Source: Leptospirales bacterium (GTDB lineage: Bacteria; Spirochaetota; Leptospiria; Turneriellales; JAOUFE01). From it: 19,643 nucleotides of DNA. Both the position numbers and the translations under genes were made by a program. Below the pieces are notes generated by a model. The model did not search any database, had not been told where the DNA came from, and worked only from the letters and a program-made list of their open reading frames with translations. Within the stretch, counting starts at the first letter, position 1, and every line of letters begins with the position of its first letter. Shown here piece by piece: positions 1,087 through 19,643 of this stretch. The stretch is taken from assembly GCA_040326155.1 (NCBI GenBank), contig JBEQLE010000075.1, positions 1-19,643 on the forward strand, in the 5' to 3' direction.

Positions 1087-1169
1087 ACACTAGTGACTAT
1101 GTTTTTATTTTCCACTGCTCGTGACAAGCGATTCATAGAATGGGTAGAGCGACCCATCTGGCTATTTTC

Positions 1170-1227: not shown

Positions 1228-1229
1228 GC

Positions 1230-2067: not shown

Positions 2068-2099
2068 ATTATTGCATAAGTTCAGGAAACAATAACAAT

Positions 2100-3884: not shown

Positions 3885-3935
3885 AACAATATTACAAGAA
3901 TAACAATCACGTTATGTGTAAATGAATACTGAATT

Positions 3936-4056: not shown

Positions 4057-4408
4057 TTACCTTTACACCTCGAAAAAAACCTCTCTCGTGGACGGCCAGT
4101 TTTAATTAGACTGTTTAATCTAGTTCACGGACCGGTCTTCCAAATATACAGATAATTGGGGATAATTCAAAAAACATATTGACAGTGTAGGGGGAATGGG
4201 CCTTTTATTTAAAAGGTTCAAGACAATTTCAGTAAATAAAATCCGAAAATTTATTTTTGCGTTCAGGCAACTCGAATATTCATTATAAATATGGGAACAG
4301 AGTAGCCCTGATAAAATTGAAAACCCAATACGGAATATTTTTTGGTGTTTTCAAAAACGCTATGACAATGTACTGGAAGAATATTACGAACTAAACAGGA
4401 GATTTTAA

Positions 4409-4816
4409 ATGAAAAAATTAATGACTATTTTTATTACAATTGCTATGACTTTTGCTGTGTTAAACTGTACTAAAAAAGACAGCCTTGCTAACTATATGGA
4501 TGAGCTGGGATGCTGCACATGGACAGAAAATAGTGGGGGAAACGCTTTTGAATATACTTTTGCAAAAGAGTTTTACACTGTCATGGCGAATGGTAAGAAA
4601 TTTGGAGATTTCACAATTTCCAGTATTGACGATGAAAAAAGAGTAATTGTCATTTTCGCCAAACGTTCAAAAAAGTATAAAGATGTATGGTGGAAAGTAG
4701 AAGATGAAAATTCAGTTTCGATTAGCCAGATGGTTGGCGGAGATTACTATGATTCCCTGGAAGCGGCGCAGGCTGCTGAAAGAACAGGGAAATGGATGAA
4801 ACTTAAGAAAAAATAG
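4409..4816 (+). CDS. Predicted lipoprotein (135 aa)
   Basis: RBS AGGAG upstream; MKK, hydrophobic core, then FAVLN-C20 (spirochetal-type lipobox); terminator downstream. Confidence 0.82.
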   Translation: MKKLMTIFITIAMTFAVLNCTKKDSLANYMDELGCCTWTENSGGNAFEYTFAKEFYTVMANGKKFGDFTISSIDDEKRVIVIFAKRSKKYKDVWWKVEDENSVSISQMVGGDYYDSLEAAQAAERTGKWMKLKKK

Positions 4817-4854
4817 TACATTTCATTCTACGTTTCTTACAACATTAAATTTAG

Positions 4855-4878
4855 AAGCCGGGTAACTCCGGCTTTTTT
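4855..4878 (+). terminator. Rho-independent terminator
   Basis: AAGCCGGG-TAAC-TCCGGCTT stem-loop followed by a T-run, between convergent genes. Confidence 0.85.
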
Positions 4879-4932
4879 ATGAACTTTTATTCGTAACAAT
4901 GGAGCCGGAATCTCCAAAGAAAGTTTGTTTTA

Positions 4933-6213
4933 CTATCTTCGTCGGTTTTGAAAGCGATTGCGACTTCCGCCGCCGCTTCCGGGAGTGTTTCGATTGTGAC
5001 TTCGCTGGCTTTTTCGTTGAGCTTCTAAACTGGCTTTTGCTTTGCCGACACTGGTAATTTCGGCATTGGCCGCTTCGTCAGAATGGTAGGGATGGTTCAT
5101 ATCAATGTGAATTTTTTGACTGGTTGTTTTTTCAATACCCACTAAGAATGATTTCTCTTCTCCGGTGACCAGAGAAATTGCGTTACCTTCACTGCCTGCC
5201 CTGGCTGTACGGCCGATACGGTGAACATAACTTTCCATTATATTCGAAAGCTCATAATTTATGACGTGGGTAATACCGTCGATGTCAATACCGCGAGATG
5301 CAATATCGGTAGCTACAAGCACCCTCACTCTATTTTGGGTAAAATCTTGAATTGCTTTTTGGCGAGCAGGTTGACTTTTATTGCCATGAATGGCCGCAGC
5401 AGAATAACCGCTTTTAAGTAGTTTTTCGGTGATGCGATTGGCTATATGTTTCATTTGAACAAAAACCAAAACTTTTTTAAGTTTCGGATCTTTTAGCAAA
5501 TGAATAAGAAGGTCTATTTTGTCTTTTTTTTCTACATACATAGCCGATTGTTGAATAATTTTTACAGTCGTCGATTGAGGTGTAACCTCGACTTTTTTGG
5601 GTTCAACCAAAATTGTATTGGCGAGAGTTTGAATTTCCGAAGGCATGGTGGCAGAAAAAAACAGGTTGTGCCGTTTCGGTGGCAACATTGGCAGAATTTT
5701 TTTTATATCTCTCATGAAACCCATGTCAAGCATTCGATCTGCTTCATCCAAAACAAATATATCGACTTTATTTAAATTCAGAAATCTTTGCTCAATTAAG
5801 TCTAACAAACGGCCAGGGGTAGCGACTAAAACATGAGGCCCCCTTTGCAGGTCTTTTACTTGTTTACCTTGTTTTACACCGCCAAATATAACGGAATATT
5901 GCTGCTTTAAATTGCATCCATATTGCTCTAAATTTTCATGTATCTGAATGGCAAGTTCTCTAGTTGGTGTTAGAATAAGGACTCGAGGGCACCTTGGGAT
6001 ATTCTCAATTTTCTTATAAAGTAAAATGTCTAGAATCGGCAGGCAAAATGCCGCCGTTTTACCGGTACCGGTTTGGGCTATGCCTAGAATATCATGGCCT
6101 TTTAGAACAAGAGGTATTGTTTCTCTTTGAATAGGGGTAGGTTTATCATACCCTACTTTTTGTAGAGCTTGTTGAATCGGAGGCGCCAGTGGTAGATCGC
6201 TGAATTTATTCAC
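4933..6213 (-). CDS. rhlE: DEAD-box ATP-dependent RNA helicase, RhlE-like (426 aa)
   Basis: Q motif (GYDKPTPIQ), AQTGTGKT, PTRELA, TPGRL, DEAD, SAT, RGID, HRIGRTAR; basic C-terminal tail. Family certain, exact ortholog less so. Confidence 0.9.
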   Translation of the reverse strand: MNKFSDLPLAPPIQQALQKVGYDKPTPIQRETIPLVLKGHDILGIAQTGTGKTAAFCLPILDILLYKKIENIPRCPRVLILTPTRELAIQIHENLEQYGCNLKQQYSVIFGGVKQGKQVKDLQRGPHVLVATPGRLLDLIEQRFLNLNKVDIFVLDEADRMLDMGFMRDIKKILPMLPPKRHNLFFSATMPSEIQTLANTILVEPKKVEVTPQSTTVKIIQQSAMYVEKKDKIDLLIHLLKDPKLKKVLVFVQMKHIANRITEKLLKSGYSAAAIHGNKSQPARQKAIQDFTQNRVRVLVATDIASRGIDIDGITHVINYELSNIMESYVHRIGRTARAGSEGNAISLVTGEEKSFLVGIEKTTSQKIHIDMNHPYHSDEAANAEITSVGKAKASLEAQRKSQRSHNRNTPGSGGGSRNRFQNRRR

Positions 6214-6481
6214 ATCGAAAATTGGCGATACCGGGATGTGGCGTCAACCTATTCATGTAATTGTGAGCTAGAAATGTACTATTAAAGTTGGTAACTCATA
6301 TTGTAGGCTGCCTTTGCTACCCCCCGATTCCATATTTAGCGAAATCCAATAATTTGCATGGAATTTGTTGGTGTAGAAAAACCGACCATGCGAATTCGAG
6401 AATACACCGTACGAGGACACGATAAAAAGTGTTTCATGAATAGTTAAGCGTTCCCCGAAGCAGACTGTGCCTCTTTCAGCC

Positions 6482-7153
6482 TTACAAATACAAGTCGAAC
6501 ACTATTTGTATTTCGGGATAATTGTTCCAGATCATAAAATGACCCCCGCCTTCGATTTCGTGGCAGTCATCGATTTTTTTTATGGAAAAAATTCGGTCTT
6601 CGACCCCGTGAATGTGTATTGTATTCTCGGAAATGTTTTCTGCATCGTCACTGTTTGCATTCGAGTTAAAGGAAGGGGGTAATTCCAGAATACGGTTTAT
6701 CCCCCATTTCACCATTTCGGGAGAAGCGTCTTTCAAGAACTGTTTTAGAACGGCTGCATCTTCATTGCCTTCTATGCCAAAGAAATATTTTACAACGCGA
6801 TTATATCGGGTAAAAAATGCAGGCGGAAAAAGTCGCATAATTTTTAAGCCCCCAAGTATTCTTGCACAGCGCGGTAGTTCCTTCCTGCTTTTTACAGTGG
6901 AAATTAAAAGAACCTGCTCTGCGCGAACTCTTTTTGAAAGTGCAAGCGCCAGAATTCCCCCAAAAGAGACGCCAATTAAAATGGCGGGTTGGAACATGTC
7001 GATCTGGTCGGCAAGTTTTTCAACGTATGAATCGATGCTTTCGTTTTTCTCCGGTTCTATATAATCGATAGGTATAACGGGGTGGCCTTTGAAATTGTAA
7101 TTGTCAAACACCCGTCCATCGGTTCCGAGAGCGCTAAGTAGATATATTTTCAT
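6482..7153 (-). CDS. Alpha/beta hydrolase (223 aa)
   Basis: Nucleophile elbow GVSFGG, acid in HIHGVEDRIF, His in GGGHFM. Confidence 0.88.
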   Translation of the reverse strand: MKIYLLSALGTDGRVFDNYNFKGHPVIPIDYIEPEKNESIDSYVEKLADQIDMFQPAILIGVSFGGILALALSKRVRAEQVLLISTVKSRKELPRCARILGGLKIMRLFPPAFFTRYNRVVKYFFGIEGNEDAAVLKQFLKDASPEMVKWGINRILELPPSFNSNANSDDAENISENTIHIHGVEDRIFSIKKIDDCHEIEGGGHFMIWNNYPEIQIVFDLYL

Positions 7154-7268
7154 ATAAGTTTTTCAGTAGTACCGAGTTCCTTTCTAATAACCTGACCTTG
7201 TCGGTTTGCTCGGTCAACTATTATTGTTGTCGGGGGCTTTTCGTAAATCATTTTTCTTTATTTTGCTT

Positions 7269-8372
7269 TTATTCTATATTGCAGTTTTGTTTTACTACAT
7301 TCCAGCTTGTAGACTCTTTTAGAAATTGTTTACGAAAAGGTTTCGAGCATGATTGCATTTTTTCAAGTCTGGCAAACCAACAGGGAATATCTTTTTTGCA
7401 ACTTTCAAACAACAGTTGAAAACTTTCTCCCTGAGGTTGGTAACGTCCGTATTGAATGAGTACGGCATTGTTCAAGGGCGCTGCGTAAAGTTCTTCGGGT
7501 ATTTGTATATATTTTACATTTGCGGCAAGGGTTTTAAGTTTATTTTGCAACTCTAAATATATTTTTATTTTATTTTCAAATTTGTATTCTTTGGACAAGT
7601 CTGACTGGTAGAGCTTTTCGAGTTTGTTTCGGTAGCTTTGCATCAGGTTGAGGTAACTTTCATATTCATCACTTACTTTTGCAGGAGGTTTTTCTGCCAT
7701 CGGTTTCTTTAGAATATCGACAATAAAACGTTGCGCTGCAATATCGTCTATAAATGAAGAGAGTGATTCCGAAAAATTGGAGTCTTGTTTAAAGTAGAGT
7801 TTTTCATGAGACATCTCATGAAGTATAAGTCTTGCTAGAGAATATTCTGAAAGTTGTAAATAAGTTGAAAACAAGGGGTCTTGAAGGTACCCGAGGGTGG
7901 AGTATGCAGCAATTTCGTTTCCATAAACATCGTATCCATTTTGTTGCAGCCTGTCGATCCATTCTGTTTTTTTTTGTTCGTCAAAAAATCCCAGGTACGC
8001 AAAATCTCCTATGAAAGGAAACGAAAATAAAACCGCTTCAAGTTGCAGGGGGTAAGCGGCGGTAAGATTCCATCCGAGAACGTTACGGTTTAACGGAACA
8101 AAATTTTCATAGCTTTTGCTCTTTTCCAGTTGGTACAATTTTTTCCCATATTGTTTAACATCAGAGACCAATTCTATTTTTTGAATTTCTTCTTTGGTCA
8201 GCTTTAGTGTGGTAAGCGCATCTTCAGTTTGTACGGAGTTTAGAATTATATAACCCTGGTGCCACGCCAGGTGAGCAACATAACCAACCCATTTGTGCAT
8301 AATGACACCGGTTATAAAAAGGCCACCCAGTAAAACCAGGCAGGTTTCTCTTTTACGTTTGAATTTAATCAT
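7269..8372 (-). CDS. Putative zinc aminopeptidase (HEXXH; DUF2265-like), N-terminally anchored
   Basis: LILHEMSHEKLY with downstream FSESL Glu, AAYSTLGYLQDP, FPFIGDFAYLGFF; N-terminal hydrophobic anchor; overlaps the stop of the upstream gene. Confidence 0.85.
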   Translation of the reverse strand: MIKFKRKRETCLVLLGGLFITGVIMHKWVGYVAHLAWHQGYIILNSVQTEDALTTLKLTKEEIQKIELVSDVKQYGKKLYQLEKSKSYENFVPLNRNVLGWNLTAAYPLQLEAVLFSFPFIGDFAYLGFFDEQKKTEWIDRLQQNGYDVYGNEIAAYSTLGYLQDPLFSTYLQLSEYSLARLILHEMSHEKLYFKQDSNFSESLSSFIDDIAAQRFIVDILKKPMAEKPPAKVSDEYESYLNLMQSYRNKLEKLYQSDLSKEYKFENKIKIYLELQNKLKTLAANVKYIQIPEELYAAPLNNAVLIQYGRYQPQGESFQLLFESCKKDIPCWFARLEKMQSCSKPFRKQFLKESTSWNVVKQNCNIE

Positions 8373-9133
8373 TTCGTTTTTAGAATTTGTGCAAACCGAA
8401 AGGCAAAATATATAGCTGTCAGAATTACCGTTATGTTTAAGGTTAGATCGATCGGTTCATAACTTTTCGATTCACTGATTATAAAATATACTCCTATAAG
8501 GATGGCTGCCGGGTATGTGATTAGCGTTTGCCAACGCTGAATTGCAGGATAATTTGAAATTTTATATTTTGTACCGGATCGAAAAATAAAGTCTCCCAGG
8601 AAAAAACCAATGCCGCCGCCCACCAGAATGTCGAGTGGAAAGTGGACACCCACATATACCCTGGATATGGCGGCCAATATGCAGGTGAATATTACGGGAA
8701 TAGAGATATACCAAGGTTGACGAAAAGTTAAAAATCGGGCTAATACCATAATTGCAGCAGCGTGGCCTGATGGAAAGCTGCGATTCGAAAACACATCTCC
8801 GATTATAAATAGACTTTCCCCCTGTAGTAACTTTGGGGGTCGGAGAGCGGGGAAATAATACTTTATGGTATTTACAAGCAGGGCTGTGGCCAATAACGAT
8901 AAAATAAATCGGGCATGTTTTTCGTTTCGTTTTTTAAAAAATAAAGTTGCGATTATAAATACAATTAAACCGTCTGCCATTGCGGTTAAAAACAACATCG
9001 GGTATTGAAACAAGTCGGTATAAAACCCATTGATGGCCCGAAAGATTGGTATATTATATTGAAAAACTGTAAAAAGTGCGACTAAATAAAGAAAGGATAC
9101 GATTGCAAACCTTTGCCAGCTTTCTTTGAACAT
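8369..9133 (-). CDS. PAP2 family membrane phosphatase (254 aa)
   Basis: C1 KYYFPALRP, C2 SFPSGH, C3 SRVYVGVHFPLD; multiple TM helices. Confidence 0.93.
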   Translation of the reverse strand: MFKESWQRFAIVSFLYLVALFTVFQYNIPIFRAINGFYTDLFQYPMLFLTAMADGLIVFIIATLFFKKRNEKHARFILSLLATALLVNTIKYYFPALRPPKLLQGESLFIIGDVFSNRSFPSGHAAAIMVLARFLTFRQPWYISIPVIFTCILAAISRVYVGVHFPLDILVGGGIGFFLGDFIFRSGTKYKISNYPAIQRWQTLITYPAAILIGVYFIISESKSYEPIDLTLNITVILTAIYFAFRFAQILKTK

Positions 9134-9221
9134 CCCTCGAAAAAATATTACTGATTCAGGAGAACAAGGCTTTTTTAAAAATGCTGGTCAGGCTTGATAT
9201 AGTTAAAAAACTGCATAGATT

Positions 9222-9848
9222 ATGGGTGAAGGGTATTTTCTAGAATTCTTCGAGTCGATTCCACGTGAGGGATACTGGCTTTTGATTTTTTTTTCTACGT
9301 TCATGGAAAATATTTTCCCTCCTTTTCCCGGTGATACGATTGTCGCTTTTACCGGATATTTATGGGGAGCAGGCCTTGTTAGTTTTCAAACTCTTGCTAT
9401 AAGTATTCTAGCGGGTAACTTAGCTGGCGCTCTGCTGATGTACTTTTTTGGCCTTGAAGTGATGAATTTCTTTTTAAAACATTTAAAAAGTGAGCGTCTT
9501 AAAAAGCTTTTTGACAAGGAGCATCTCGATAAAACCCACAAATGGTTCAACAAATATGGGTTTTTTGCTGTTATGTTTTCTCGCTTTTCAGCCGGCATAC
9601 GGTTTTTTGTTTCTATTGTGGCCGGTATGGCCAATATGCATGTTTCTGTTTTCATTCTGGCCTTTTTACTGGCAACGGGCCTATGGAACTCTCTATTAAT
9701 CTATGGCGGTTATGTTATGGGAGAGAACTGGCGTGAAATTCTACAGTATATTCAAGTTTATAGCGCAGTTTTTGCCGTTGTTTTAATTGCTTTTGCTTAT
9801 TACTTTTACCATCGCTTTAAAAAATCAAAAATTGACTCTAACGAGTAA
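9222..9848 (+). CDS. DedA family membrane protein (208 aa)
   Basis: ENIFPPFPGD, WFNKYG, FSRFSAGIRFFVSIVAGMANM motifs. Confidence 0.93.
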   Translation: MGEGYFLEFFESIPREGYWLLIFFSTFMENIFPPFPGDTIVAFTGYLWGAGLVSFQTLAISILAGNLAGALLMYFFGLEVMNFFLKHLKSERLKKLFDKEHLDKTHKWFNKYGFFAVMFSRFSAGIRFFVSIVAGMANMHVSVFILAFLLATGLWNSLLIYGGYVMGENWREILQYIQVYSAVFAVVLIAFAYYFYHRFKKSKIDSNE

Positions 9849-9871
9849 TTCGAATCGCGCCTTTTTTTGCT

Positions 9872-9898
9872 TCAGCTACTTTCATTTTTGTCCGATAA
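9872..9898 (+). promoter_or_regulatory. Putative sigma-28 (FliA) promoter of fliS
   Basis: TCAG(9872-9875)-N15-TCCGATAA(9891-9898) versus consensus TAAA-N15-GCCGATAA, about 25 nt upstream of a late flagellar gene. Confidence 0.55.
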
Positions 9899-9922
9899 TA
9901 AGAGTAATAAGCAGGAGCAAAT

Positions 9923-10351
9923 ATGCAAAGCGCACATAATGAATATCATATGAACCAAATAGAAACCGCTGACCCGAAGCAGTTAGTGATAATGCTTTAT
10001 GATGGAGCCGGAAGGTTTCTCGAAAGAGCCGCAGCTGAAATTGATAATTTTAAAAAATACGATAATGTAAATACGAATATTCTGAAAGCCCAGGATATTA
10101 TAACTGAACTCATGTTATCACTCGATATGGAACAAGGCGGGGAGATCGCCGACAATTTGCTAAACTTATACGCCTTCATGAAAAAAGAACTTCTCGAAGC
10201 GAATATGAAAAAAGAGAAAGGTGGCATCGTCCAGGTAATTAAAATGCTAGACGATTTGAAAGAGGCATGGGTAAAAATGGAACCGGGCTCTGAAGTCAAA
10301 AAAGAGGCTCCACCAGAAAGACCGAAAGGCGGGTTTGTCGCCCAGGGTTAA
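9923..10351 (+). CDS. fliS: Flagellin export chaperone FliS
   Basis: IETADPKQLVIMLYDGA, KAQDIITELMLSLDMEQGGEIADNLLNLY, LKEAW; RBS AGGAG. Confidence 0.97.
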   Translation: MQSAHNEYHMNQIETADPKQLVIMLYDGAGRFLERAAAEIDNFKKYDNVNTNILKAQDIITELMLSLDMEQGGEIADNLLNLYAFMKKELLEANMKKEKGGIVQVIKMLDDLKEAWVKMEPGSEVKKEAPPERPKGGFVAQG

Positions 10352-10353
10352 GA

Positions 10354-10665
10354 TTGGAATTATCCTCTGTTTTTTACCGTCTTATTGCCTATAAAAATTT
10401 TCAACTCAACGCAATAAATAAAATTATCAGTGGAAAAGATTTTTCTACCGAGAGATTCTTGAAGTCCGTTCAACGACTGCATAACTATGCAGTGTCTCTG
10501 GAGTTGCGTGCGCCCATTTCACCTACCGAAAAAACTCTTCAAAGTTATTATCAGTTCCTTGAACTAAAACTAGATCGTAAAATGGTTGCTCTAAAAGACG
10601 ATTATAAAAGCCATCTCGACACTGAGATCATTAAACGTTCCTTGTCGGTCAAGAAAATTAGATAA
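10354..10665 (+). CDS. Hypothetical helical protein (103 aa) coupled to fliS
   Basis: TTG start 2 nt after the fliS stop; helical, charged composition; no recognisable motif. Confidence 0.55.
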   Translation: MELSSVFYRLIAYKNFQLNAINKIISGKDFSTERFLKSVQRLHNYAVSLELRAPISPTEKTLQSYYQFLELKLDRKMVALKDDYKSHLDTEIIKRSLSVKKIR

Positions 10666-10895
10666 AAGTATCTGTAAATTTTACCGAATAATTATTTGCT
10701 TTCTTTATGTTTCACCCGGTAGATGCTATATGAAAACCGGACAAAACTTAACAAGTCTTTATTGGTATGTATGTCTTCTAATTGCGACAAAATATCCATT
10801 TTACAATAAAAAAGTCCTCTAATTTTGTTACATTATTTAAAATTTATTATTAGTACTTTACTTGTTTCAAAGGAAAGTATATATGTCTCTAAACG

Positions 10896-12437
10896 ATGGT
10901 TGATTCAATTACAGCTCAAATGAGGCATGCGGATAATTCTGCTGATATATCGTCAGGTGATTTATTATATACGAAACCTGACTCAGAGCAGTTATATTAT
11001 CTTCAAAATATACATTTGCTGGAATTGCAAAATTCCGTTGTTGCTCTTAAAATAAATAATTCGGCTTTTTTTGAACTTGAAAAAGAAGCTCTTGCCCTTC
11101 TTAATGCTTTTTATTCGGAACAAGAAAAATACGACACATTGCAATCTAAACTGATTCCGATAACACGTAATTTTATTATAAAGTTTGTACATCAAAAAAG
11201 CGGTATTTCTTACGAAAATTTAAATGAAACTTTCGATGAACTTGTCTCTTTGGGGTTAATTGGCGAAAACCCTGAAAAAGTTTTGGCAACCCCGCAACTT
11301 CTGGAGCCTGCCGTATCGAACCTGGTTTTAATTTTAGCAGGCAAATGTAATCTGGCATGCAGTTATTGTTACGCTGATAAAGGATCTTTTCAGGGACCGG
11401 AGTCTTTGATGGAAGAAAAAACAGCATACAAGGCGGTGGATTTTTTAATTGAAAATTCCGATGTCGAACCATCTATCCATATTAATTTTTTTGGTGGTGA
11501 GCCGCTATTGAACTTTCCGGTTTTGAAATCTACGGTTGCTTATGCTAAAAAAAGAGCTGCTGTTGCAAAAAAAATGATATCTTTTTCTGTAACTACAAAT
11601 TCCACTTTGCTGAATGAAAAAGCCGGTGAATTTTTTTCTCGCGAAAATATTTCCATTTCTACAAGTCTTGATGGATCTGCCACTTTGCATGATGCAAATA
11701 GAAAATATCCATCCGGAAAAGGTTCATTTGAAGACGCAAAAAATAATATTCTATCCTGTAAAAAAAATTACCCCGAATTAAAAATTGGCGTTCGGGTAAC
11801 ACTGACGAAAGAAGAGATCTCTTTAAAGCGCCGGTTATTCGATCTTCTTGAACTTGGTTTTTCCGAAGTAGGGTTTTCCCCTGTTTCAAGCGCTGACCCG
11901 AACATAGCATTTTCTGATTTGGAGTACGCTGAATTTACCAGTCAATTTGAAGAGTTAATTACTCTTTATATAGAAACGGCACTGCAAGATCAACTTCTGC
12001 CCGTATCGAATATTTCAAATTTTTTAAGTTATTTGCATGATGGAATCGTAAAGAATTTTCCATGTGGCGGAGCTATTGGACTAATGGGAGTAAACCCGGG
12101 TGGCGAGCTGTTTTTATGCCATCGTCTAATTGGCCAATCCGAATATGCGTTGGGTAACATTTATGATGGTATCGACCGGACAAAACAAGCGCAGATCATA
12201 GAGAGTACCGCAGTGGGTAATAAACAAGGTTGTACTAATTGCTGGGCAAAACATTTTTGCGGTGGTGGGTGTCATTATGAAGTTCATTTGCAAAATGACA
12301 ATATTTCGGCAACCCCTTTGGAAAATTGCAAATGGTTTCAATCATGGGCTAAAACTTTAATCGAAGCATATGTCATTATTATGAATAAAAATCCGCAATT
12401 TATCGATCGTTATATAGATCAAAAATCATTATGTTAA
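10896..12437 (+). CDS. qhpD: Radical SAM/SPASM peptide maturase, QhpD-like (513 aa)
   Basis: CNLACSYC, FFGGEPL, SPASM cysteines FPCGGAIG..LCHR..CTNCWAKHFCGGGCHYE..C, QhpD-like tail W..IEAYVIIMNKNPQFI, RRE-like N-terminus (IHLLEL..INNSAFFEL); adjacent to a QhpC-like precursor. Confidence 0.85.
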   Translation: MVDSITAQMRHADNSADISSGDLLYTKPDSEQLYYLQNIHLLELQNSVVALKINNSAFFELEKEALALLNAFYSEQEKYDTLQSKLIPITRNFIIKFVHQKSGISYENLNETFDELVSLGLIGENPEKVLATPQLLEPAVSNLVLILAGKCNLACSYCYADKGSFQGPESLMEEKTAYKAVDFLIENSDVEPSIHINFFGGEPLLNFPVLKSTVAYAKKRAAVAKKMISFSVTTNSTLLNEKAGEFFSRENISISTSLDGSATLHDANRKYPSGKGSFEDAKNNILSCKKNYPELKIGVRVTLTKEEISLKRRLFDLLELGFSEVGFSPVSSADPNIAFSDLEYAEFTSQFEELITLYIETALQDQLLPVSNISNFLSYLHDGIVKNFPCGGAIGLMGVNPGGELFLCHRLIGQSEYALGNIYDGIDRTKQAQIIESTAVGNKQGCTNCWAKHFCGGGCHYEVHLQNDNISATPLENCKWFQSWAKTLIEAYVIIMNKNPQFIDRYIDQKSLC

Positions 12438-12446
12438 GGAGTGTTT

Positions 12447-13169
12447 ATGGCACAGGAAGTAGCAACAGTTAAAATCTTTCCCTACGAGCAAACTTTACCA
12501 CCGGGTTCCAATTCGGTCGATGTAAATACGGACCCGATGTTTGGCGTTGCACGTATTGGAGATAAAAGACCAACCGGGTATAGAACAAGCATTACTCCGG
12601 CCGATACGTTTCCAAACCGGGCGCCCAGAATACCCTGCCAGTTTGTTTTAGTCGGTTTCGATTCAACCGGGGCAAAAATCAGCGGCGGCGACATACTAGA
12701 CGGTATACTTTTTAATGGCGCAAAACTGCCCAACGGTAACACCGTGAAGGTTGACTGGAGCGCTACAATAAGCAATGGCAAATGGGATAGTTATATTATT
12801 CCAGATATGCGACAACCAGCCGTAGACCTTACCGAGTCGTGCGTCGCCGGAGACCCCCCAACTTCGGCGCTTGGATACTTTATTGATGATACAGGACAAA
12901 TGATGCCAGGCAATGATGGCATACTCCAGTTTCTAACAACTGGTCCCACGCCACAATATCCTGAAGCGTTGAGAAGTTCAGATTTTGGATACACGAATGA
13001 TTTTAACACTGATCGTTGTGGAGACGGTTTTGTAAAGGCCGATTATTCCGAAATAGTTACAGGCGGGGGCAGTTCAAATTCGAAACCCCAGGTTCAAATT
13101 AAATCGGTACTCACTCAGCCGGACTGGGCTGTAACTTTATACCAACCCAAAGGGTGGAATCTGCCGTAA
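12447..13169 (+). CDS. Stand-alone protein resembling domain IV of quinohemoprotein amine dehydrogenase alpha subunit (240 aa, no heme motif, no signal peptide)
   Basis: Colinear motifs VKIFP..VARIG..PRIPCQF..G.D..VDWS..IDDTGQMMPG..GPTP..NTDRCGDGFVKA..VLTQPDW..LP match the remembered QhpA C-terminal pattern (VKVxP..ARIG..PK...F..W.V..DG.FxPG..GPNP..TNNxGNL.V.A..IVTVQRW..P). AAGGAG at 12436-12441 favours ATG 12447. Confidence 0.7.
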   Translation: MAQEVATVKIFPYEQTLPPGSNSVDVNTDPMFGVARIGDKRPTGYRTSITPADTFPNRAPRIPCQFVLVGFDSTGAKISGGDILDGILFNGAKLPNGNTVKVDWSATISNGKWDSYIIPDMRQPAVDLTESCVAGDPPTSALGYFIDDTGQMMPGNDGILQFLTTGPTPQYPEALRSSDFGYTNDFNTDRCGDGFVKADYSEIVTGGGSSNSKPQVQIKSVLTQPDWAVTLYQPKGWNLP

Positions 13170-13201
13170 ATTATTCAGAAGATTTGTGATAGGAGAAATG
13201 T

Positions 13202-14815
13202 ATGAAACAAGTTAAGCCATTAAATAAAAAAGCTTTGGCTATTGCCGAAGAAGATACACCCGACGTGTTCGCCTGCGCGCCAATACCTAAACCGGATTGC
13301 ACCAGTAATTATGCACCCGGCATTGAAGTGTCGTCTGCCACATCGTCTACCGACCAGAATGCCAGTACAAAAGGGTTATGTTCTCCCTTTCTTAGAGATA
13401 CTATGATTTGTAGCTGTAGTTACTGGCCTTCACAAGATCCCGATTTAACAGTGCAAGAGACCGCTTCAAAATGGAGAAATGGTATGGGTCACGGGCAAGG
13501 TCATGGCGTTAACTCGCAAGAGCTTCGATTTGTCTACCCTACCGATCCTAAAAGCGATCCGAATCGCGCTTATGGCAACGGCAAAGATTCCTGGGATAAA
13601 AATGTTCCTTCGGATATAAACGAAATTATGATTAAAGATAATTGGGCCGATACTGGGTCCGTACCGACTTCGGGAAATACATGGACCAGTCCCGATATCT
13701 GGTTGCGCTACAACAACGAACCGGAAAGTAATTTTCCTGATCCGAATCTTAATTATCATCAGGGTAATCCGATTGTAAATAGAAATAATTATTTGTATGC
13801 GAGGGTACGTAATACCGGGCAGCATGTTATTGATCAGGTTTATGTAAAATTTTATGCAGGTCTTACAAGTACCAACCCTAGCGGTATTTTAGTCGGGCAT
13901 GGAATGGTTCGAGAGATGGCCGCTCAAAGTGTTGCCGTTGTAAAATCGATAAAACCCTGGGCTCCAAATGTCACGGGACATGGGTGTATACGGGTTATTA
14001 TCGATTCTACTCAAGACCCGGTAAAATTGCTGGGCTCGCCGCCAAATTTTAATTCTTACAATCAATTACTGGGACCCCAGTTTCAAGATGTATCCGTCGC
14101 TTATGATAATAATGTCGCACAACTTAACCTGAGCATTATTACGGTCATTCCGGGATGGGCGGGGATACCTTTTGATTTTGTGATCATGCCGAAAATTCCC
14201 CCGATTATCGATGATATTGAATGGCCTCCCCGTCCTTTGCCCGAGCCTGATCCGAATCCTGAGTGGCATAAAATAATTCTGGAAAGGCCACTGGCTCTAT
14301 CGCGACTAAAACTTGAAACAGCCCCGGTTGCAAAACATTTGCAAGCTTATAAACGGCCGTTCAAATTTTCCATATCGAAATTGTTTGAAGTACTTTACCA
14401 GTTGTTCTTGCCGATTCTAAGTTGGGTTTCGCCATCCTTGACGAACCATCGCAAGCGATTGATCACTTACATGCCTACGGAAAAAGACAGACCGGTAAAG
14501 CATAGTTTAATGATTAACCTGGACCGAGTTGCTCATGATGATCAGTATATGGATCACTCCTTTGTGATTAAACAAGCTTTCAAAGGAAAAACATTGGGTG
14601 GTATAACGGTAAGAATGAATGTTACTCATCCCAGTCTTGTCAGGTATATCGCAGACACCGATACGAAGGTCGCTCACTTTTTTAAATGCCCTGAGATTAA
14701 GCAAATACCGGATAATCGTAAAAGAGGTTTTGATGATCCGAATGAGGCGTTGGCTGCCGGGTATGCCGTGCATGATCGTTGCGATATTTTGTTGGCAAGA
14801 CGTAAGGGTGAATAG
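13202..14815 (+). CDS. QhpC-like (CTQ/ranthipeptide precursor) N-terminal domain fused to an Ig/CARDB-like domain, Pro-rich linker and C-terminal Ada-type metal-binding domain (537 aa)
   Basis: Leader MKQVKPLNKKA; core CTSNYAPGIEV, LCSPFLRD, CSCSYWPSQDPD, ELRFVYP; then WTSPDIWLR..YLYARVRNTG..GHGC..DNNVAQLN; terminal YIADTDTKVAHFFKC..EALAAGYAVHDRC; RBS AGGAG. Confidence 0.82.
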   Translation: MKQVKPLNKKALAIAEEDTPDVFACAPIPKPDCTSNYAPGIEVSSATSSTDQNASTKGLCSPFLRDTMICSCSYWPSQDPDLTVQETASKWRNGMGHGQGHGVNSQELRFVYPTDPKSDPNRAYGNGKDSWDKNVPSDINEIMIKDNWADTGSVPTSGNTWTSPDIWLRYNNEPESNFPDPNLNYHQGNPIVNRNNYLYARVRNTGQHVIDQVYVKFYAGLTSTNPSGILVGHGMVREMAAQSVAVVKSIKPWAPNVTGHGCIRVIIDSTQDPVKLLGSPPNFNSYNQLLGPQFQDVSVAYDNNVAQLNLSIITVIPGWAGIPFDFVIMPKIPPIIDDIEWPPRPLPEPDPNPEWHKIILERPLALSRLKLETAPVAKHLQAYKRPFKFSISKLFEVLYQLFLPILSWVSPSLTNHRKRLITYMPTEKDRPVKHSLMINLDRVAHDDQYMDHSFVIKQAFKGKTLGGITVRMNVTHPSLVRYIADTDTKVAHFFKCPEIKQIPDNRKRGFDDPNEALAAGYAVHDRCDILLARRKGE

Positions 14816-14836
14816 TTATCCGGTAGAACAGTATTC

Positions 14837-15691
14837 ATGAGAGTCTATTTTGGTTCGGAGTTCTGTGAATATTTAATTCCGTCTAAACGGGAATTGATAA
14901 ATGCTCATGAAAAAAGCCTGAGCGATGGATTTGACTTTACGTTTGTTACCCCTCCTGTAACCGATACGGGAGTTGAAAAACTACAGGTTTTGTTTGAATA
15001 CCTTGATTCTGTTGAAATGGAAATTGAGGTAGTAGCAAATGATTGGGGTGTAGTGACTTTGGCTTCCCGGTTCGAATTTTTGCAGCCTGTTATGGGACGA
15101 TTGTTAAACAAAATGTTGCGCGAACCGCGATTTAACACGATGTATAAAAACTCCGAGGTGCCAAAGGCGCCTCTTAAGATATTTCAAAATTCAGGAATAA
15201 GCAGTAATTTCATGGAAATTATAAAGAGATATCGTATAAAGAGAATCGAACTTGATAATCTTTACCAGGGGTTCGGCGAAGATTTGAATTTACATGGACT
15301 TGACGCATCGGTTTATTTACCTTATGGGTACATCGCATCAGGTCGAATGTGTTATTATGCAGCTGTTGGACGCCCTACCGAAGTTCGGTTTTTATACGGG
15401 CGTGAGTGCCAAAAACAATGTATTGGTAATAGTGCAACAATGGTATCGGAGAAGACCGCAGATTTAAATAACATTATACAAAAAGGTAACACGGTATTTT
15501 ACAAACAGGATAAAACAATGATCGACAAAGCTCTTCAATGGATAAAAAACAATCGTGCAAGAGTTGTTATTTTTGAAGACCCCATAGAGTTGCCTGCAAA
15601 AGCATTTGAAAATATCGAAGATGCTGAAGCTTGTCTCAGCAGGACATTCGAAAATCAGAGAAATATATTTAGCAAGTCATATGAAAATTAA
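14837..15691 (+). CDS. Divergent U32-family-like protein (284 aa), probable partner subunit
   Basis: RVYFGSEFCE, FTFVTP, EVVANDWG, GRLLNK, RIELDN, YGYIASGRMC..ECQKQC..KGNTVF: U32/UbiV-like barrel pattern with candidate Fe-S cysteines; overlaps the next U32 gene. Confidence 0.65.
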   Translation: MRVYFGSEFCEYLIPSKRELINAHEKSLSDGFDFTFVTPPVTDTGVEKLQVLFEYLDSVEMEIEVVANDWGVVTLASRFEFLQPVMGRLLNKMLREPRFNTMYKNSEVPKAPLKIFQNSGISSNFMEIIKRYRIKRIELDNLYQGFGEDLNLHGLDASVYLPYGYIASGRMCYYAAVGRPTEVRFLYGRECQKQCIGNSATMVSEKTADLNNIIQKGNTVFYKQDKTMIDKALQWIKNNRARVVIFEDPIELPAKAFENIEDAEACLSRTFENQRNIFSKSYEN

Positions 15692-16688
15692 CACGCCTGT
15701 TAACCATCCTGATGAAGTCGCCGCATTGGTAGAAGCCGGGTCTGATGAATTTTACTGTGGTTATAACCCGGAAGATTGGTCTGAAAAATTCAGTTTCGCG
15801 GTATGGATGAACCGTCGAGGTCCCGGTCCGGCAAATATCAGTAAATTTGAAGACCTGCAATCCATAATTGAACAGGCTGCACAGGCAAGACGAAAAGTCA
15901 TGGTGACCATGAATGCGCCGACGTATACCGACGAACAAAGAGATTTTTTAAAAAATTTAGTAGACTCTATTTTATCGATTGGCGGCGCCGGATTTATTTT
16001 ATCGGACATTGCTCTAATGCAATGGGTGGCGACAACACACCCCCAGGCACAAGTTATCGTTAGTTCTTTGGCTGCTGTTACAAATTGCGCCTCTGCACGG
16101 TTTTATCAAGACTCCGGAGCCTCCAGAATTATACTGCCGCGCCAATTGTCGATTTCTGAAATATTGCATATGAAGAAAAACCTGCCCGGACTCGAACTTG
16201 AAGCATTTGTCATGAATGACGGTTGCGTATATGAGGAGAGCTTTTGCAGCACCACTCATGCGATTGGGGCTTTTTGTCAGGACAAATGGAAATACACCAA
16301 TCACTGCTCGAATGAAAGTGGAACAAATAAAATTTCGGAAAAGTTGTTTCAAGATGCCATTGACGACTATCAAAAAAGAATCTGGTATTTAAGTAACTGT
16401 GGGAACACCCAGGCAGAAAACGGGGCACCCAACGGGCCATGCGGCTTATGCGCGATGTATGACTTTCATGAGGCGGGCGTGGAGTATCTGAAAGTTGTTG
16501 GCAGGGAAGCCACAACACACCGTAAAATAAAAAGCGTAGAAATGACTCACTCCGTATTACAAAAAATACAGATCGGGGCGGACAAGATGCAAACCTCAGA
16601 GTTTGCAAAAAGTTTACGTAATTTTGGCGAGGGGTGTCAAAATGGTTATATGTGCTATTATCGTGAACCAGCGACAGCGATGTCTTGA
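15681..16688 (+). CDS. U32 family Fe-S protein (335 aa), probable O2-independent hydroxylase
   Basis: EAGSDEFYCG, RIILPRQLSISEI, LEAFVMNDGCVYEESFC (C-x6-C), FCQ, CGLC, LKVVGRE; ATG 15681 overlaps the upstream stop (15689-15691). Confidence 0.88.
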   Translation: MKINTPVNHPDEVAALVEAGSDEFYCGYNPEDWSEKFSFAVWMNRRGPGPANISKFEDLQSIIEQAAQARRKVMVTMNAPTYTDEQRDFLKNLVDSILSIGGAGFILSDIALMQWVATTHPQAQVIVSSLAAVTNCASARFYQDSGASRIILPRQLSISEILHMKKNLPGLELEAFVMNDGCVYEESFCSTTHAIGAFCQDKWKYTNHCSNESGTNKISEKLFQDAIDDYQKRIWYLSNCGNTQAENGAPNGPCGLCAMYDFHEAGVEYLKVVGREATTHRKIKSVEMTHSVLQKIQIGADKMQTSEFAKSLRNFGEGCQNGYMCYYREPATAMS

Positions 16689-16697
16689 TGTCAGAAA

Positions 16698-17447
16698 ATG
16701 GGAATTTTACATTTAGAAAGTTTACGTAGAACTGGCGCGACCGGAAAAGGCGTCAAGGTTGCGGTTGTGGACAGCGGAATCAACGGAACTCACCCTCATA
16801 TAGGTGGTATAGCCGGAGGAATTAGAATTGCAGTTGATGAGAATAAAAATATTTATACGGACGCAAAGCATACCGGGGATGAAATTGGTCATGGAACGGC
16901 ATGCGCCGCTCTGATACGTCTAAAAGCTCCTGGTGTATCACTGCACAGTATAAAAATATTTGAAAACTCATTATCGACATATACTCAGGTTTTGATCTAT
17001 GCCCTCTCCTGGTGTATTGAGGAATCCTTCGATATTATCAATCTAAGCCTTGGCAGTAAAGGTAACCGTCATGCAGACTCCCTGCATAAAGTGTGTCGCC
17101 AGGCCGCCGAAAAAAATATACTTATTGTATCTTCACTGCCGCCTCTGTCGCAAAGTTTACCGGGTCTTTACCCAGAAGTGCTTGGCGTATGTTCAGACGA
17201 GAAATGTGGTTTCGATGATATTCTCCCGGATGATTTGGAAAACTTTAATTGTCGCGCTTCGGGGAACCCCAGGCCACTGCCGGGTCTGCCGGTTCAAATG
17301 AATTTTAAAGGTGACAGTTTGGCTTGTGCCCATGTCACAGGTTTTATGGCCTTGCTAAAAGAACAACAAAAAGGCATCCGATGGAAAACATTGTCTGAAA
17401 CATTGAAAGCTTACTTTGCTAAAGATTTTAATGAGCTTCAGCTGTAA
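16698..17447 (+). CDS. qhpE: Small cytoplasmic subtilisin-like (S8) leader peptidase, QhpE-like (249 aa)
   Basis: Triad VAVVDSG, GHGTACA, GDSLACAHVTG; IINLSLG; no signal or propeptide; IVSSLPP..PGLYPEVLGVCSDEKC resembles the QhpE-type segment. Confidence 0.8.
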   Translation: MGILHLESLRRTGATGKGVKVAVVDSGINGTHPHIGGIAGGIRIAVDENKNIYTDAKHTGDEIGHGTACAALIRLKAPGVSLHSIKIFENSLSTYTQVLIYALSWCIEESFDIINLSLGSKGNRHADSLHKVCRQAAEKNILIVSSLPPLSQSLPGLYPEVLGVCSDEKCGFDDILPDDLENFNCRASGNPRPLPGLPVQMNFKGDSLACAHVTGFMALLKEQQKGIRWKTLSETLKAYFAKDFNELQL

Positions 17448-17510
17448 ATTTCTGCAAAAGAAACATCTTTCATTAACGAGAGCTATCACCTCGCGAGACA
17501 AAAATATGTT

Positions 17511-18962
17511 TTATCGTGTAACAATTTCACCAACTAATTCAGTATCGTATAGAATATTCACCATTTGGCCTTTTTGCAGGTTGGTCGATACTGGTAACCT
17601 GCATTTTAGATAGTTCTCGGTGGTGACCTGTGCGGTTTCATTGTTGTTTGTTTCGATGATGGCGCGGTAAACATTTCCAGCGGTTTTTTGTATATAATTT
17701 TGCGCAGAAATATCAGCGGCTGTTTTCAGCCTTTTCACTCGTTCTCGAATAATACTGCCATGAACCATTTGCAGTTCACCATTATCTATTTTACGATCGA
17801 GAGAAGTCTGGCTTCTTCGCGACCATGGGAAAATATGGATATTAGCAAAGTTTGCATTTTTTACAAAAGCCAGAGTTTGCAAAAAGTCATCTTCTGTTTC
17901 ACCGGGAAAGCCAACGATCAAGTCGGTTCCAATGTGAACGTCAGGGCGAATCTTTCTCAGGGCTTCAAATTTTTGCATGACCAACTCTGGGTTGTATTTT
18001 CGGTTCATGAGTTTTAAGATTCGTTGCGAAGCGCTTTGCAGGGGAATGTGAAAAAACGGGGCAATTTTTTTATGGCCTGCTAGTTCGATAATTTCGGGAG
18101 TCAGAGATTCAGGTTCAAGTGAACTGATTCGATAATAGTAATGACCTGGCAGGGTGACCAGTTTGTGCAGTAACCATGAAAAATTTTCAACTTTGTCGGC
18201 CGCGCCAGTGGTTTTATAACGCCCGATATTAATACCGGTTAAAATAATTTCCGCAAAACCTGTTTTTCCCAGCGCTTTAACTTCCGATTCAATCGATCTA
18301 AAATTGCGTGAAATACCTTTACCGCGAGCCATAGGAATTTTACAATAGCTGCATCTTTTGTCGCACCCATCTTGAATTTTCAGATAAGCCCTTGAAAATT
18401 TTTCAAGAGATTGTGGATAACTTTTAAAAATGGTTTCCTGATTGCGGTTTGCCTTTGCAGGTTCCGACTCTGTCGTCGTAGGTATCGCAGATGGGTCAAT
18501 TTCATTGGTTTCTATAGCGGCAATTAGATCGGGAATGGAGTTTTTTTCTGCGTTAGAAACGACAAGGTAAACACCGTCCATGTTTTCAATTTCTTGTCGG
18601 TCCGTTGTAGCGTAACAACCTGTTACAATAATTTTCGCATGTGGGTTCAATTTTTGAACTCGACGAATGGCTCCCCGGTTTTTAACATCGGCGCGGTTGG
18701 TCACAGTGCAGGTATTAATTACCACATATGCGGCTTCTTCAATGGAGCCGGAGGTTTCAAAAGAGGTTAAAGTTGAATTTGAAAGAGATGAGTTGTTTTC
18801 CATATTGAGTGTTTCTAACCGATTGACACGGCATCCAAAATGGAAATAATATATTTTTTTAGTCTGGTTTATGTTCAAGGGGGCAGTTTTGGAGCCCGAG
18901 ACGGGTTCAGGTTCGAGACTGGGTCTGGGGTTTGGTTGCCGGGCGCCTGAAATCGGGCTCAT
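17511..18962 (-). CDS. mtaB: tRNA t6A37 methylthiotransferase MtaB (483 aa)
   Basis: UPF0004 cysteines GCRVN, NTCTVT, TGCYA; radical SAM KIQDGCDKRCSYCKIP; IVGFPGET; HIFPWSRR; TENY. Confidence 0.93.
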   Translation of the reverse strand: MSPISGARQPNPRPSLEPEPVSGSKTAPLNINQTKKIYYFHFGCRVNRLETLNMENNSSLSNSTLTSFETSGSIEEAAYVVINTCTVTNRADVKNRGAIRRVQKLNPHAKIIVTGCYATTDRQEIENMDGVYLVVSNAEKNSIPDLIAAIETNEIDPSAIPTTTESEPAKANRNQETIFKSYPQSLEKFSRAYLKIQDGCDKRCSYCKIPMARGKGISRNFRSIESEVKALGKTGFAEIILTGINIGRYKTTGAADKVENFSWLLHKLVTLPGHYYYRISSLEPESLTPEIIELAGHKKIAPFFHIPLQSASQRILKLMNRKYNPELVMQKFEALRKIRPDVHIGTDLIVGFPGETEDDFLQTLAFVKNANFANIHIFPWSRRSQTSLDRKIDNGELQMVHGSIIRERVKRLKTAADISAQNYIQKTAGNVYRAIIETNNNETAQVTTENYLKCRLPVSTNLQKGQMVNILYDTELVGEIVTR

Positions 18963-18964
18963 AA

Positions 18965-19606
18965 TTATTTGAGATTATCGATGTTTGTTTGAATGAGTTT
19001 TTTGAAACTGGGAACCAGGTTTGGATTGTTTAACGCGATATTAAAATGCTCGATCGCTTTCTTTTTTAGTTCATCGGCTTTCTCAGGAGATTTCGTTTTT
19101 TCGCTTTTATACCACTGCTGGTATATATAACCAAGCAGGTTATGCAAATACGGACTCTGCTTTCGAAATGAAAGCCCCCACAGCATAGAAAACTCAGCTT
19201 TTTCATAATCGGCCAGCGAAAGATGCGCGCGAGCTTCTAATACAACCGCTTCGAGTTTATCTTTAACACCTGTCTCTTTCTGATCAAAAACAGATTTGGC
19301 TTTCTCAGCGTATTCCAGGGCTTTTTTTGCGTTGTTTTCTAAAAGGTTAATGCGCGATAAAATATTGTATAATTTTGATGGAATAGACACTTTATGGTCT
19401 GTCAAATTTTGAATTCCACGAAGGGCAATTTTGCGAGCGGTACCAAGATATCTACGATGAATTTGCATTAAGGCATAATCGATGTAAGGCCCTGGTTTTG
19501 AGGGGTCCGTTTTTATGGTTCTTTCAAAATGGACAATTGCCGAATCGAAATTTCCCTGTTTCCAATGGTTGTGCGCAGCCAGGTAGCGAAGTTTAAAGTT
19601 TTTCAT
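18965..19606 (-). CDS. Tetratricopeptide repeat protein (213 aa)
   Basis: TPR-like helices (GNFDSAIVHFERTIKTDP, KALEYAEKA, YLHNLLGYIY, KAIEHFNIAL); stop 2 nt before the mtaB start. Confidence 0.8.
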   Translation of the reverse strand: MKNFKLRYLAAHNHWKQGNFDSAIVHFERTIKTDPSKPGPYIDYALMQIHRRYLGTARKIALRGIQNLTDHKVSIPSKLYNILSRINLLENNAKKALEYAEKAKSVFDQKETGVKDKLEAVVLEARAHLSLADYEKAEFSMLWGLSFRKQSPYLHNLLGYIYQQWYKSEKTKSPEKADELKKKAIEHFNIALNNPNLVPSFKKLIQTNIDNLK

Positions 19607-19643
19607 GTCTGACTTTATGACATGGCGAATGTGGTTAAGCGAC

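Follow-up and report, generated by a model that had tools for sequence, protein, structure and literature searches.

A U32 protein pair in the place of QhpG: a candidate oxygen-independent step of tryptophylquinone maturation at a Leptospirales locus

Closest described systems and the Leptospirales locus

The canonical qhp operon, qhpADCBEFG(R), of Paracoccus and Pseudomonas putida is the described system for the maturation of quinohemoprotein amine dehydrogenase (QHNDH), and the flavoprotein QhpG is its peptidyl-Trp dihydroxylase. Three thioether pairs and one cysteine tryptophylquinone (CTQ) pair are described for QhpC (PMC7876137). Proteins of the U32 family have been linked to the hydroxylation of aromatic rings without O2, and in the case of UbiU-UbiV the oxygen comes from prephenate (PMC10990095). 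UbiU-UbiV is found in Escherichia coli and other Pseudomonadota, where its hydroxylation in ubiquinone biosynthesis is both O2-independent and prephenate-dependent, and TrhP and RlhA are the family members concerned with tRNA U34 and 23S rRNA C2501, respectively. The present study deals with a stretch of 19,643 nucleotides (nt) from a Leptospirales bacterium (GCA_040326155.1, contig JBEQLE010000075.1, positions 1 to 19,643), which was analyzed as a whole and is hereafter called the window. Six close-packed genes on its + strand, at 10896-17447, form one tight operon with intergenic gaps of 3-32 nt. They encode a QhpD-like enzyme, a conserved protein of 242 amino acids (aa) without a family (p242), a precursor with an N-terminal QhpC homolog, a U32 protein (U32-B) with a smaller adjacent partner (U32-A), and a QhpE-like protease.

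To our knowledge, every known route to a tryptophylquinone, whether tryptophan tryptophylquinone (TTQ) or CTQ, relies on O2 or H2O2 for the oxygenation of the Trp ring, which leaves open how anoxic or low-oxygen organisms make tryptophylquinone enzymes. We propose, with a probability of roughly 0.58, that the six genes constitute a self-contained CTQ-type maturation cassette, in which the U32-A/U32-B pair replaces QhpG and would hydroxylate Trp75 of the precursor independently of O2. Identical genes in an identical order were found in a Nitrospinota metagenome-assembled genome (MAG; locus L003) and on a metagenome contig (locus L019). Since these two loci repeat both the gene set and the gene order, the arrangement is not a matter of chance. 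A full-text literature search, with most subscription papers outside its scope, found no paper joining U32 proteins with QhpG, QHNDH, or tryptophylquinone.

The window has a QhpD-like and a QhpE-like protein in common with the canonical qhp operon. However, the QhpC domain of its precursor is fused to approximately 440 further residues, p242 is added, and QhpG is absent. The QhpC, QhpD, and QhpE matches of the window are all under the curated cut-offs, with QhpD and QhpE each being the best family for its protein. QhpA (TIGR03908) had no match in the genome of the window or in the Nitrospinota genome. Pfam was run on 21 window open reading frames (ORFs), namely, the six operon genes and 15 larger flanking ORFs; the window has 61 ORFs of at least 60 aa, and those outside the 21 are mostly shorter and overlap scanned genes. 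The operon had initially been annotated as devoid of a flavin monooxygenase, and this was confirmed, with no Pfam match to such an enzyme in the 21 ORFs. QhpB-like, propeller, and QhpF-like ATP-binding cassette (ABC) exporter genes were also not found among the window ORFs scanned; in this genome, QhpB and QhpF were looked for in those ORFs only.

The resemblance to UbiU-UbiV lies in the adjacency of a U32 gene and a smaller partner, the types of Cys motif, a predicted heterodimer, and a proposed aromatic-ring target. The 4Fe-4S motifs reported for E. coli are CXnCX12CX3C in UbiV and CX6CX16CX38C in UbiU (PMC6747719). In the window, the corresponding spacings are X18 rather than X12 and X9 rather than X16, and U32-B has four extra invariant cysteines. 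Moreover, no UbiT or ubiquinone context was seen (no ubi gene and no UbiT-like or SCP2 protein among the window ORFs scanned with Pfam and NCBIfam), and the proposed substrate is a protein side chain, not a prenylated phenol. TrhP and RlhA share the U32 domain, the dependence on Fe-S, and the link to O2-independent C-hydroxylation; however, they are single proteins with a C-terminal extension. The cassette is a member neither of the canonical QHNDH system nor of the UbiU/UbiV, TrhP, and RlhA families.

The U32 pair and the place of qhpG

A metagenome scan with the U32-A alignment yielded 80 loci, and L003 brought the number to 81. A U32-B relative adjoins U32-A in 73 of these (28 with the order A-B, 45 with the order B-A); in the other eight, the contig extends no more than approximately 240 nt upstream of U32-A. 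In addition, qhp genes are present in ten of the 81 loci. Altogether, 13 loci tie the pair to qhp genes. Three are of the fused type (the window, L003, and L019), eight contain canonical qhp structural or maturation genes (L016, L022, L023, L024, L027, L033, L036, and L056, with L022 and L023 being near copies), and in two (L012 and L031), the pair is followed by a QhpF-like ABC exporter before the contig ends.

The canonical-type loci were informative on gene order. In L036, QhpA (553 bits), QhpD (590), QhpC (141), and QhpB (280) each exceeded their NCBIfam cut-offs, and QhpB is followed by U32-A, U32-B, a 94-aa ORF, an ABC exporter, and QhpE (164.4 bits, slightly under the cut-off of 165). 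The order in L022 is a response regulator, QhpC (147), QhpA (432), QhpD (432), a QhpB-like protein (103), U32-A, U32-B, an ABC exporter, QhpE (162), an iron alcohol dehydrogenase, and an aldehyde dehydrogenase. L016 has QhpD (588), a QhpC ORF, U32-A, U32-B, an ABC exporter, and QhpE (166), and L024, L027, L033, and L056 hold other combinations of qhp genes. Every other canonical qhp gene is present in L036 and L022, with the pair at the place expected for qhpG. We consider the pair to stand in place of qhpG because the other canonical genes are all present in such operons. These U32-type operons (L022, L036, L016, L024, L033, and L056) share with the window the same clade of the pair, the A-then-B order, QhpD, and QhpE, and QhpG was not found in them. 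They have a free QhpC of approximately 105-120 aa, a heme QhpA, a propeller QhpB, and an ABC exporter, which lead to a periplasmic QHNDH; the window, L003, and L019 instead have a fused precursor of 500-540 aa and p242. The window consequently adds a second architecture that keeps the same pair, with a fused precursor and with neither a heme subunit nor an exporter in the cassette.

We also noted a fused DAHP (3-deoxy-D-arabino-heptulosonate 7-phosphate) synthase/prephenate dehydratase gene approximately 3 kb upstream of the QhpD/U32 cluster in L016 (L016:1180-2865). This neighbor deserves mention since U32 proteins have been proposed to take their oxygen from prephenate; it occurs in one locus only and may be due to chance.

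The reference for QhpG was a divergently transcribed 412-aa gene of the Paracoccus pantotrophus pPAN2 operon, the identity of which was confirmed with NF049967 (403 bits) and PDB entry 7ctq ("peptidyl tryptophan dihydroxylase", E 2e-43). A phmmer search with this Paracoccus QhpG (ORFs of at least 50 aa, E≤1e-3) detected QhpG in none of the 81 loci, and NF049967 matched none of the 59 locus ORFs scanned with NCBIfam. Genome-wide, NF049967 (cut-off 240) scored at best 60 bits in the Nitrospinota genome and 27 bits in the genome of the window, which is 94.7% complete. The initial annotation had proposed a check for the mutual exclusivity of qhpG and the pair near QhpC homologs; the results obtained are in its favor, with QhpG in 0/13 qhp-linked loci and under the cut-off in both genomes. 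Among 401 sampled genomes of the same phylum, the full-length precursor was present in one, that of the window itself, and QhpD exceeded its cut-off in none. Since qhp systems were essentially not found in this phylum, the sample reveals only the sporadic occurrence of the cassette.

U32-B (335 aa; 15681..16688, +) is a UbiU-like U32 protein that matches PF01136 at E 1e-33 and 117 bits (cut-off 22.4) over model positions 4-231 of 233. From a TTG codon, its ORF extends over 15606-16688 (360 aa). However, homologs start at an internal MKI, and ATG 15681 is therefore the likely start. The two genes had been described as overlapping, which holds; from ATG 15681, U32-B overlaps the TAA of U32-A (15689-15691), and the likely extent of the overlap is 11 nt, not 86 nt. 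C182, C189, and C199 of U32-B align with C169, C176, and C193 of E. coli UbiU and form the motif CX6CX9C, and C240, a majority residue, lies one column from UbiU C232. C182, C189, C199, C254, C257, C319, and C325 are invariant in 29/29 members of the subfamily. C254/C257 (CGLC) and C319/C325 (C-x5-C near the C-terminus) have no counterpart in E. coli UbiU, and these four cysteines may form a second metal or cluster site.

Against the UbiU model NF047963 (cut-off 440), U32-B scored 84 bits, and against the TrhP model NF011996 (cut-off 534), 77 bits; U32-A did not match the UbiV model NF047965 (cut-off 275). These model scores and the gene context led us to reject both a ubiquinone-directed UbiUV identity and a TrhP identity for the pair. 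The genome of the window has a separate TrhP-like U32 gene on another contig (390 bits), and we therefore regard the operon pair as an extra, specialized copy.

U32-A (284 aa; 14837..15691, +) is more divergent. It had no Pfam or NCBIfam match even at E 10, and Pfam also matched neither the L003 copy nor seven other family members. The family is large; a threshold of E≤1e-3 gives 2251 cluster representatives, and one of E≤1e-30 gives 819. BLASTP gave no match between U32-A and U32-B, and hhalign of the U32-A family against the U32-B subfamily gave a probability of 88.8% and E 2.5e-6 over 71 columns. The AlphaFold2 (AF2) model of U32-A is a triosephosphate isomerase (TIM)-type barrel with a predicted local distance difference test (pLDDT) score of 81. 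Its comparison with the solved U32 protein Mk0906 (5d88) yielded Z 8.7 and a root mean square deviation of 4.1 over 180 aligned residues, which ranked 11 in the VIA wide search. Foldseek of the same model against PDB returned only generic radical S-adenosylmethionine (SAM), viperin, CutC, and DHPS barrels at E ~1e-3, and when PDB was searched by sequence, using U32-B or the profile of the U32-A family as the query, neither a related chain nor a solved U32 pair was returned. C10, C172, C191, and C195 are invariant in 18/18 aligned members in the arrangement CXnCX18CX3C, and a 4Fe-4S site is predicted at these residues. In UbiV, too, the first Cys is far upstream of the other three (PMC6747719). 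Because of the hhalign match, the TIM-barrel model, the four invariant cysteines, and the constant pairing with U32-B, U32-A is best treated as a divergent U32 relative in a UbiV role rather than as a library member of the family.

In two relatives of U32-A, P0133 (481 aa) and P0134 (489 aa), the chain also contains a SAM-dependent methyltransferase domain, which is C-terminal in one and N-terminal in the other. Such fusions suggest that hydroxylation is followed by methylation in other branches of the U32-A family.

The pair may alternatively act on RNA, a quinone, or another small molecule and be only loosely linked to qhp genes, for example, by supplying a cofactor or metabolite. The substrates of the characterized U32 proteins are ubiquinone precursors, tRNA, and rRNA (PMC10990095, PMC6747719); the methyltransferase fusions P0133 and P0134 recall the hydroxylation and subsequent methylation of small molecules or RNA; and L018, L053, L017, and L039 belong to the clade of the pair without qhp neighbors. 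However, in 13 loci of two architectures, the pair is located within an operon that runs from the precursor or structural genes to the exporter or protease. In addition, the scores of 84 of 440 for UbiU and 77 of 534 for TrhP are low, the genome has its separate TrhP-like gene, and no ubiT-like or ubiquinone gene is present among the window ORFs scanned. We judge this explanation to be quite improbable.

A two-chain model of U32-A and U32-B had a median score of 0.91 over three runs, and the best of three controls scored 0.00. That mark was reached by 116/157 solved complexes and by 2/215 mismatched pairs; these counts apply only roughly here, since U32-A and U32-B were modeled with alignments of our own. 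The heterodimer runs agreed in at least 93% of contacts, and the pLDDT of the partner was at least 83. The modeled interface takes in the Cys-rich stretches of both chains. The model supports the formation of a heterodimer by U32-A and U32-B. The pair also has the UbiU-type and UbiV-type four-Cys arrangements, with spacings unlike those of E. coli, from which the binding of clusters is predicted. The suggestion of a UbiUV-like heterodimer in the initial annotation is accordingly in line with both the two-chain model and the 4Fe-4S types of the Cys motifs. Its description of a U32-like gene pair with Cys clusters between the precursor (13202-14815) and an S8 peptidase (16698-17447) was likewise sound, the ORFs being at these positions and the cysteines invariant.

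A tree of U32-A was constructed from 80 rows (IQ-TREE, careful mode; two loci with a match of fewer than 200 query residues were left out). All 13 qhp-linked copies are on one side of a branch with support of 100/99. Within this side, a narrower group of 22 rows (support 93/86) comprises 9/10 of the canonical-type and 3/3 of the fused-type copies. On the other side is a clade of 50 rows, nearly all with the B-A order.

The 50-row sister clade has a context of its own, with FAD_binding_4 oxidases (one or two per locus, 20 loci), an HdrD-like CCG/4Fe-4S protein (13 loci), and subunits of the electron-transfer flavoprotein (ETF; 13 loci). Examples are found among L020-L091 (L090:3335-7620, L050:4858-10082, and L052:1-2655). 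Judging from its gene neighborhoods, this clade looks like a separate, undescribed U32-dependent redox system with its own electron-transfer partners.

This context bears on a further explanation, namely, that the pair participates in CTQ maturation as a two-cluster redox module for another oxidative step, with the oxygens coming from another enzyme or, by way of a different catalyst, from water. Candidate steps are the formation of the Cys70-Trp75 bond and the oxidation of dihydroxy-Trp to the quinone, which would need an electron sink when O2 is absent. The synteny evidence is equal for this explanation and for Trp75 hydroxylation by the pair. Furthermore, the clusters of UbiU-UbiV have been proposed to move electrons from the substrate to an acceptor (PMC10990095), the extra invariant C254, C257, C319, and C325 of U32-B may be an additional redox or metal site, and the sister clade occurs with ETF, HdrD-like, and FAD-linked oxidase genes. 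However, the gene missing from L036 and L022 is qhpG alone, which encodes the hydroxylase, and these loci contain no further gene that could be taken for an oxygenase. The available text on the known pathway also describes no dedicated enzyme for the later steps (PMC7876137). We consider a redox module without hydroxylation to be unlikely and prefer the hydroxylation of Trp75 by the pair.

The precursor and its proposed maturation

The precursor, or presumed quinoprotein (537 aa; 13202..14815, +), has a leader (residues ~1-28) followed by a QhpC-like core (residues ~33-95; nt 13298-13486), and approximately 440 aa make up its C-terminal part; QhpC homology is confined to the first ~95 residues. 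Library models matched the N-terminus only, with 29.6 bits for NF037958 QH_gamma (cut-off 50) and 20.7 bits for PF08992. We attribute the low QH_gamma score to the insertion and fusion. A profile of seven members of the precursor family was aligned with the solved QhpC (PDB 1jmx_G), in which C33 corresponds to C7, E42 to E16, C60 to C27, D66 to D33, C70 to C37, C72 to C41, W75 to W43, and D81 to D49. The four cysteines of 1jmx_G, its Trp, and the three acidic residues that take part in the crosslinks are thus all aligned, and together with the leader, the precursor has the three Cys-Asp/Glu pairs and the CTQ Cys/Trp pair of a QhpC-type precursor. The predicted CTQ pair is encoded by the codons from Cys70 to Trp75 (C-S-C-S-Y-W; 13409..13426, +).

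In an alignment (A6) that combines the Paracoccus QhpC with four free QhpCs of U32-type operons and the three fused precursors, N8 in the leader, C33, P39, G40, E42, C60, P62, D66, C70, W75, D81, and W91 are invariant in 8/8 sequences. C70 and W75 are also invariant in two other alignments (A1 and A5). Trp75, with Tyr74 as the alternative, had been named as the target. The first choice stands, since Trp75 is invariant and aligns with the CTQ residue Trp43 of QhpC, whereas position 74 is either Trp or Tyr; Tyr74 was rejected on these grounds. The most divergent of the fused precursors, that of L019 (L019:1241-1600), has both C70 and W75 but is without an equivalent of C72, from which we speculate that the third thioether crosslink may be dispensable.

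The AF2 model of the precursor, based on eight sequences, was of low confidence (pLDDT 49). A structure lead from Atlas, to be taken as a lead only, relates residues 100-480 to a two-sandwich CARDB/COG1470-like module (TM 0.51-0.59), a type of module that secreted peptidases carry as an accessory. The C-terminal part of approximately 440 aa may, on this lead, consist of beta-sandwich (CARDB/COG1470-like) domains and a small C-terminal domain. The precursor is rare; six homologs were found among 5.8 billion proteins, a scan of species genomes gave one relative (L003, the Nitrospinota MAG), and a metagenome scan with the precursor alignment gave no relatives among 108 pattern matches. The middle beta-sandwich (profile positions ~127-310) also matched within two very long ORFs elsewhere in the genome of the window, of 1183 and 1404 aa, at G000:C109:18684-19262 (L103) and 29851-30273 (L105).

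Three further genes complete the cassette. The first encodes a QhpD-like radical SAM/SPASM maturase (513 aa; 10896..12437, +), for which the best NCBIfam match was TIGR03906 (quinohemoprotein amine dehydrogenase maturation protein; 346.5 bits, under the cut-off of 453), followed by a PapB-type ranthipeptide maturase (309 bits). Pfam Radical_SAM was also matched, and identity to the L003 ortholog is 39%. This enzyme presumably makes the Cys-to-Asp/Glu thioether crosslinks in the precursor. The second encodes p242 (12441..13169, +), which had no Pfam or NCBIfam match even at E 10, and the Atlas leads for which were all under the trust level (best 0.82). Its position is kept in L003 (50% identity) and L019 (32%), and it is possibly a partner subunit of the quinoprotein. 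The third encodes a QhpE-like subtilisin-type S8 protease (249 aa; 16698..17447, +), with NF049966 QhpE as the best match (144.3 bits, slightly under the cut-off of 165) and PF00082 at E 6e-22. Orthologs are present at the matching position in L003 and L019, and the protease presumably cuts off the leader of the precursor.

The presence of a protease gene is relevant to the idea that U32-A and U32-B are a peptidase or chaperone without redox chemistry, which would either cleave the leader or present the precursor to QhpD. The U32 family was named after collagenase activity, and QhpG itself also acts as a scaffold that stimulates crosslinking by QhpD in a ternary complex (PMC7876137). However, the cassette already has its own QhpE-like protease for this task, Fe-S-type cysteine motifs account for most of the invariant residues in U32-A and U32-B, and the U32 family is now viewed as Fe-S proteins tied to hydroxylation (PMC10990095, PMC6747719). 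A role as a peptidase or chaperone is, in our opinion, very improbable.

In the maturation that we envision with the pair as the Trp75 hydroxylase, the QhpD-like enzyme would recognize the conserved leader and make the thioethers C33-E42, C60-D66, and C72-D81. The U32-A/U32-B heterodimer, with one 4Fe-4S cluster in each chain, would then replace the FAD- and O2-dependent QhpG and introduce two oxygens onto Trp75 without O2. By analogy with UbiU-UbiV, the donor would probably be prephenate, and the clusters would remove two electrons per hydroxylation. Thereafter, the Cys70-Trp75 bond would be made and the product oxidized to the quinone, and the QhpE-like protease would cut a leader of roughly 26-28 residues. 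Because the cassette is without a heme subunit, a beta-propeller subunit, and an ABC exporter, the mature product is probably a cytoplasmic, heme-free quinoprotein, perhaps with p242.

The fuller claim, that a U32 heterodimer hydroxylates a Trp side chain in a folded, crosslinked protein without O2 and that the product is a new heme-free, probably cytoplasmic CTQ enzyme composed of a QhpC domain, beta-sandwiches, and p242, is more tentative, and we place it slightly below even odds. If it is true, a protein would for the first time be the substrate of a U32 family member, and a tryptophylquinone would have its first route without oxygen. Hydroxylation that is independent of O2 and probably dependent on prephenate would then extend beyond lipids and RNA to proteins, and both a U32 subfamily and its Pfam-less partner family, with at least 2251 cluster representatives, would gain a function. 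The fused precursor moreover points to an undescribed class of quinoproteins. The mechanism of U32 hydroxylases would also become testable by mass spectrometry on a defined peptide, a test that this family has lacked so far (PMC10990095).

Hosts, oxygen, and neighboring genes

The pair had been expected to be enriched in anaerobes, and this expectation was not supported by the two genomes examined. The genome of the window has three COX1 matches (445, 171, and 64 bits), the Nitrospinota genome has one of 214 bits, and the anaerobic ribonucleotide reductase NrdD was not found in either. Since both encode heme-copper oxidases, neither host is a strict anaerobe. The distribution of UbiU-UbiV in facultative bacteria (PMC6747719) resembles this host pattern. 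In the Nitrospinota genome, a gene for a glycyl-radical activase precedes L003.

Several points weigh against the O2-independent hydroxylation of Trp75 by the pair. We know of no U32 protein that acts on a protein. With heme-copper oxidases and without NrdD in both fused-cassette genomes, an O2-free route is not obviously needed, and the genome of the window encodes elsewhere one group-A flavin monooxygenase (HpxO-like), which could act in trans. The absence of QhpG from the metagenome loci covers flanks of up to 8 kb only. Concerning the proteins themselves, library models cannot place U32-A in the U32 family (PF01136 is not matched), hhalign of its family against single E. coli UbiV and UbiU sequences was insignificant (E 0.12), and its fold match to Mk0906 is tied with many other TIM barrels. 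The score of the heterodimer is a model confidence, not a measurement. Within the qhp-type clade of the pair (the 22-row group), at least four distinct loci (L018, L053, L014/L017, and L039/L040) have 6-8 kb of upstream flank and no qhp gene; in those genomes, the pair may act on other substrates or may lie apart from its qhp genes. Because some members of the clade stand without qhp neighbors, the link between the pair and qhp genes is strong, not exclusive. Lastly, in vitro hydroxylation by a U32 protein is still to be demonstrated (PMC10990095).

FliS and a 103-aa ORF precede the operon, a convergent MtaB gene follows it, and the remaining flanking genes are unrelated and of a housekeeping nature. 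A 143-aa ORF at 2100-2531 (-) matched an adenylate/guanylate cyclase profile only at positions 99-143 of 183, the last quarter, and may be a gene fragment or have a misplaced start. A promoter and terminator scan of 10300-17700 returned sites no more frequently than in shuffled sequences (20 vs 18.8 and 7 vs 6.8). The G+C content is 0.40-0.44 in the cluster (window positions 12001-17000) and 0.36-0.37 upstream (9001-12000). This raised G+C content, together with the occurrence of the cassette in one of the 401 genomes of its own phylum and yet also in a Nitrospinota MAG, is consistent with horizontal acquisition.

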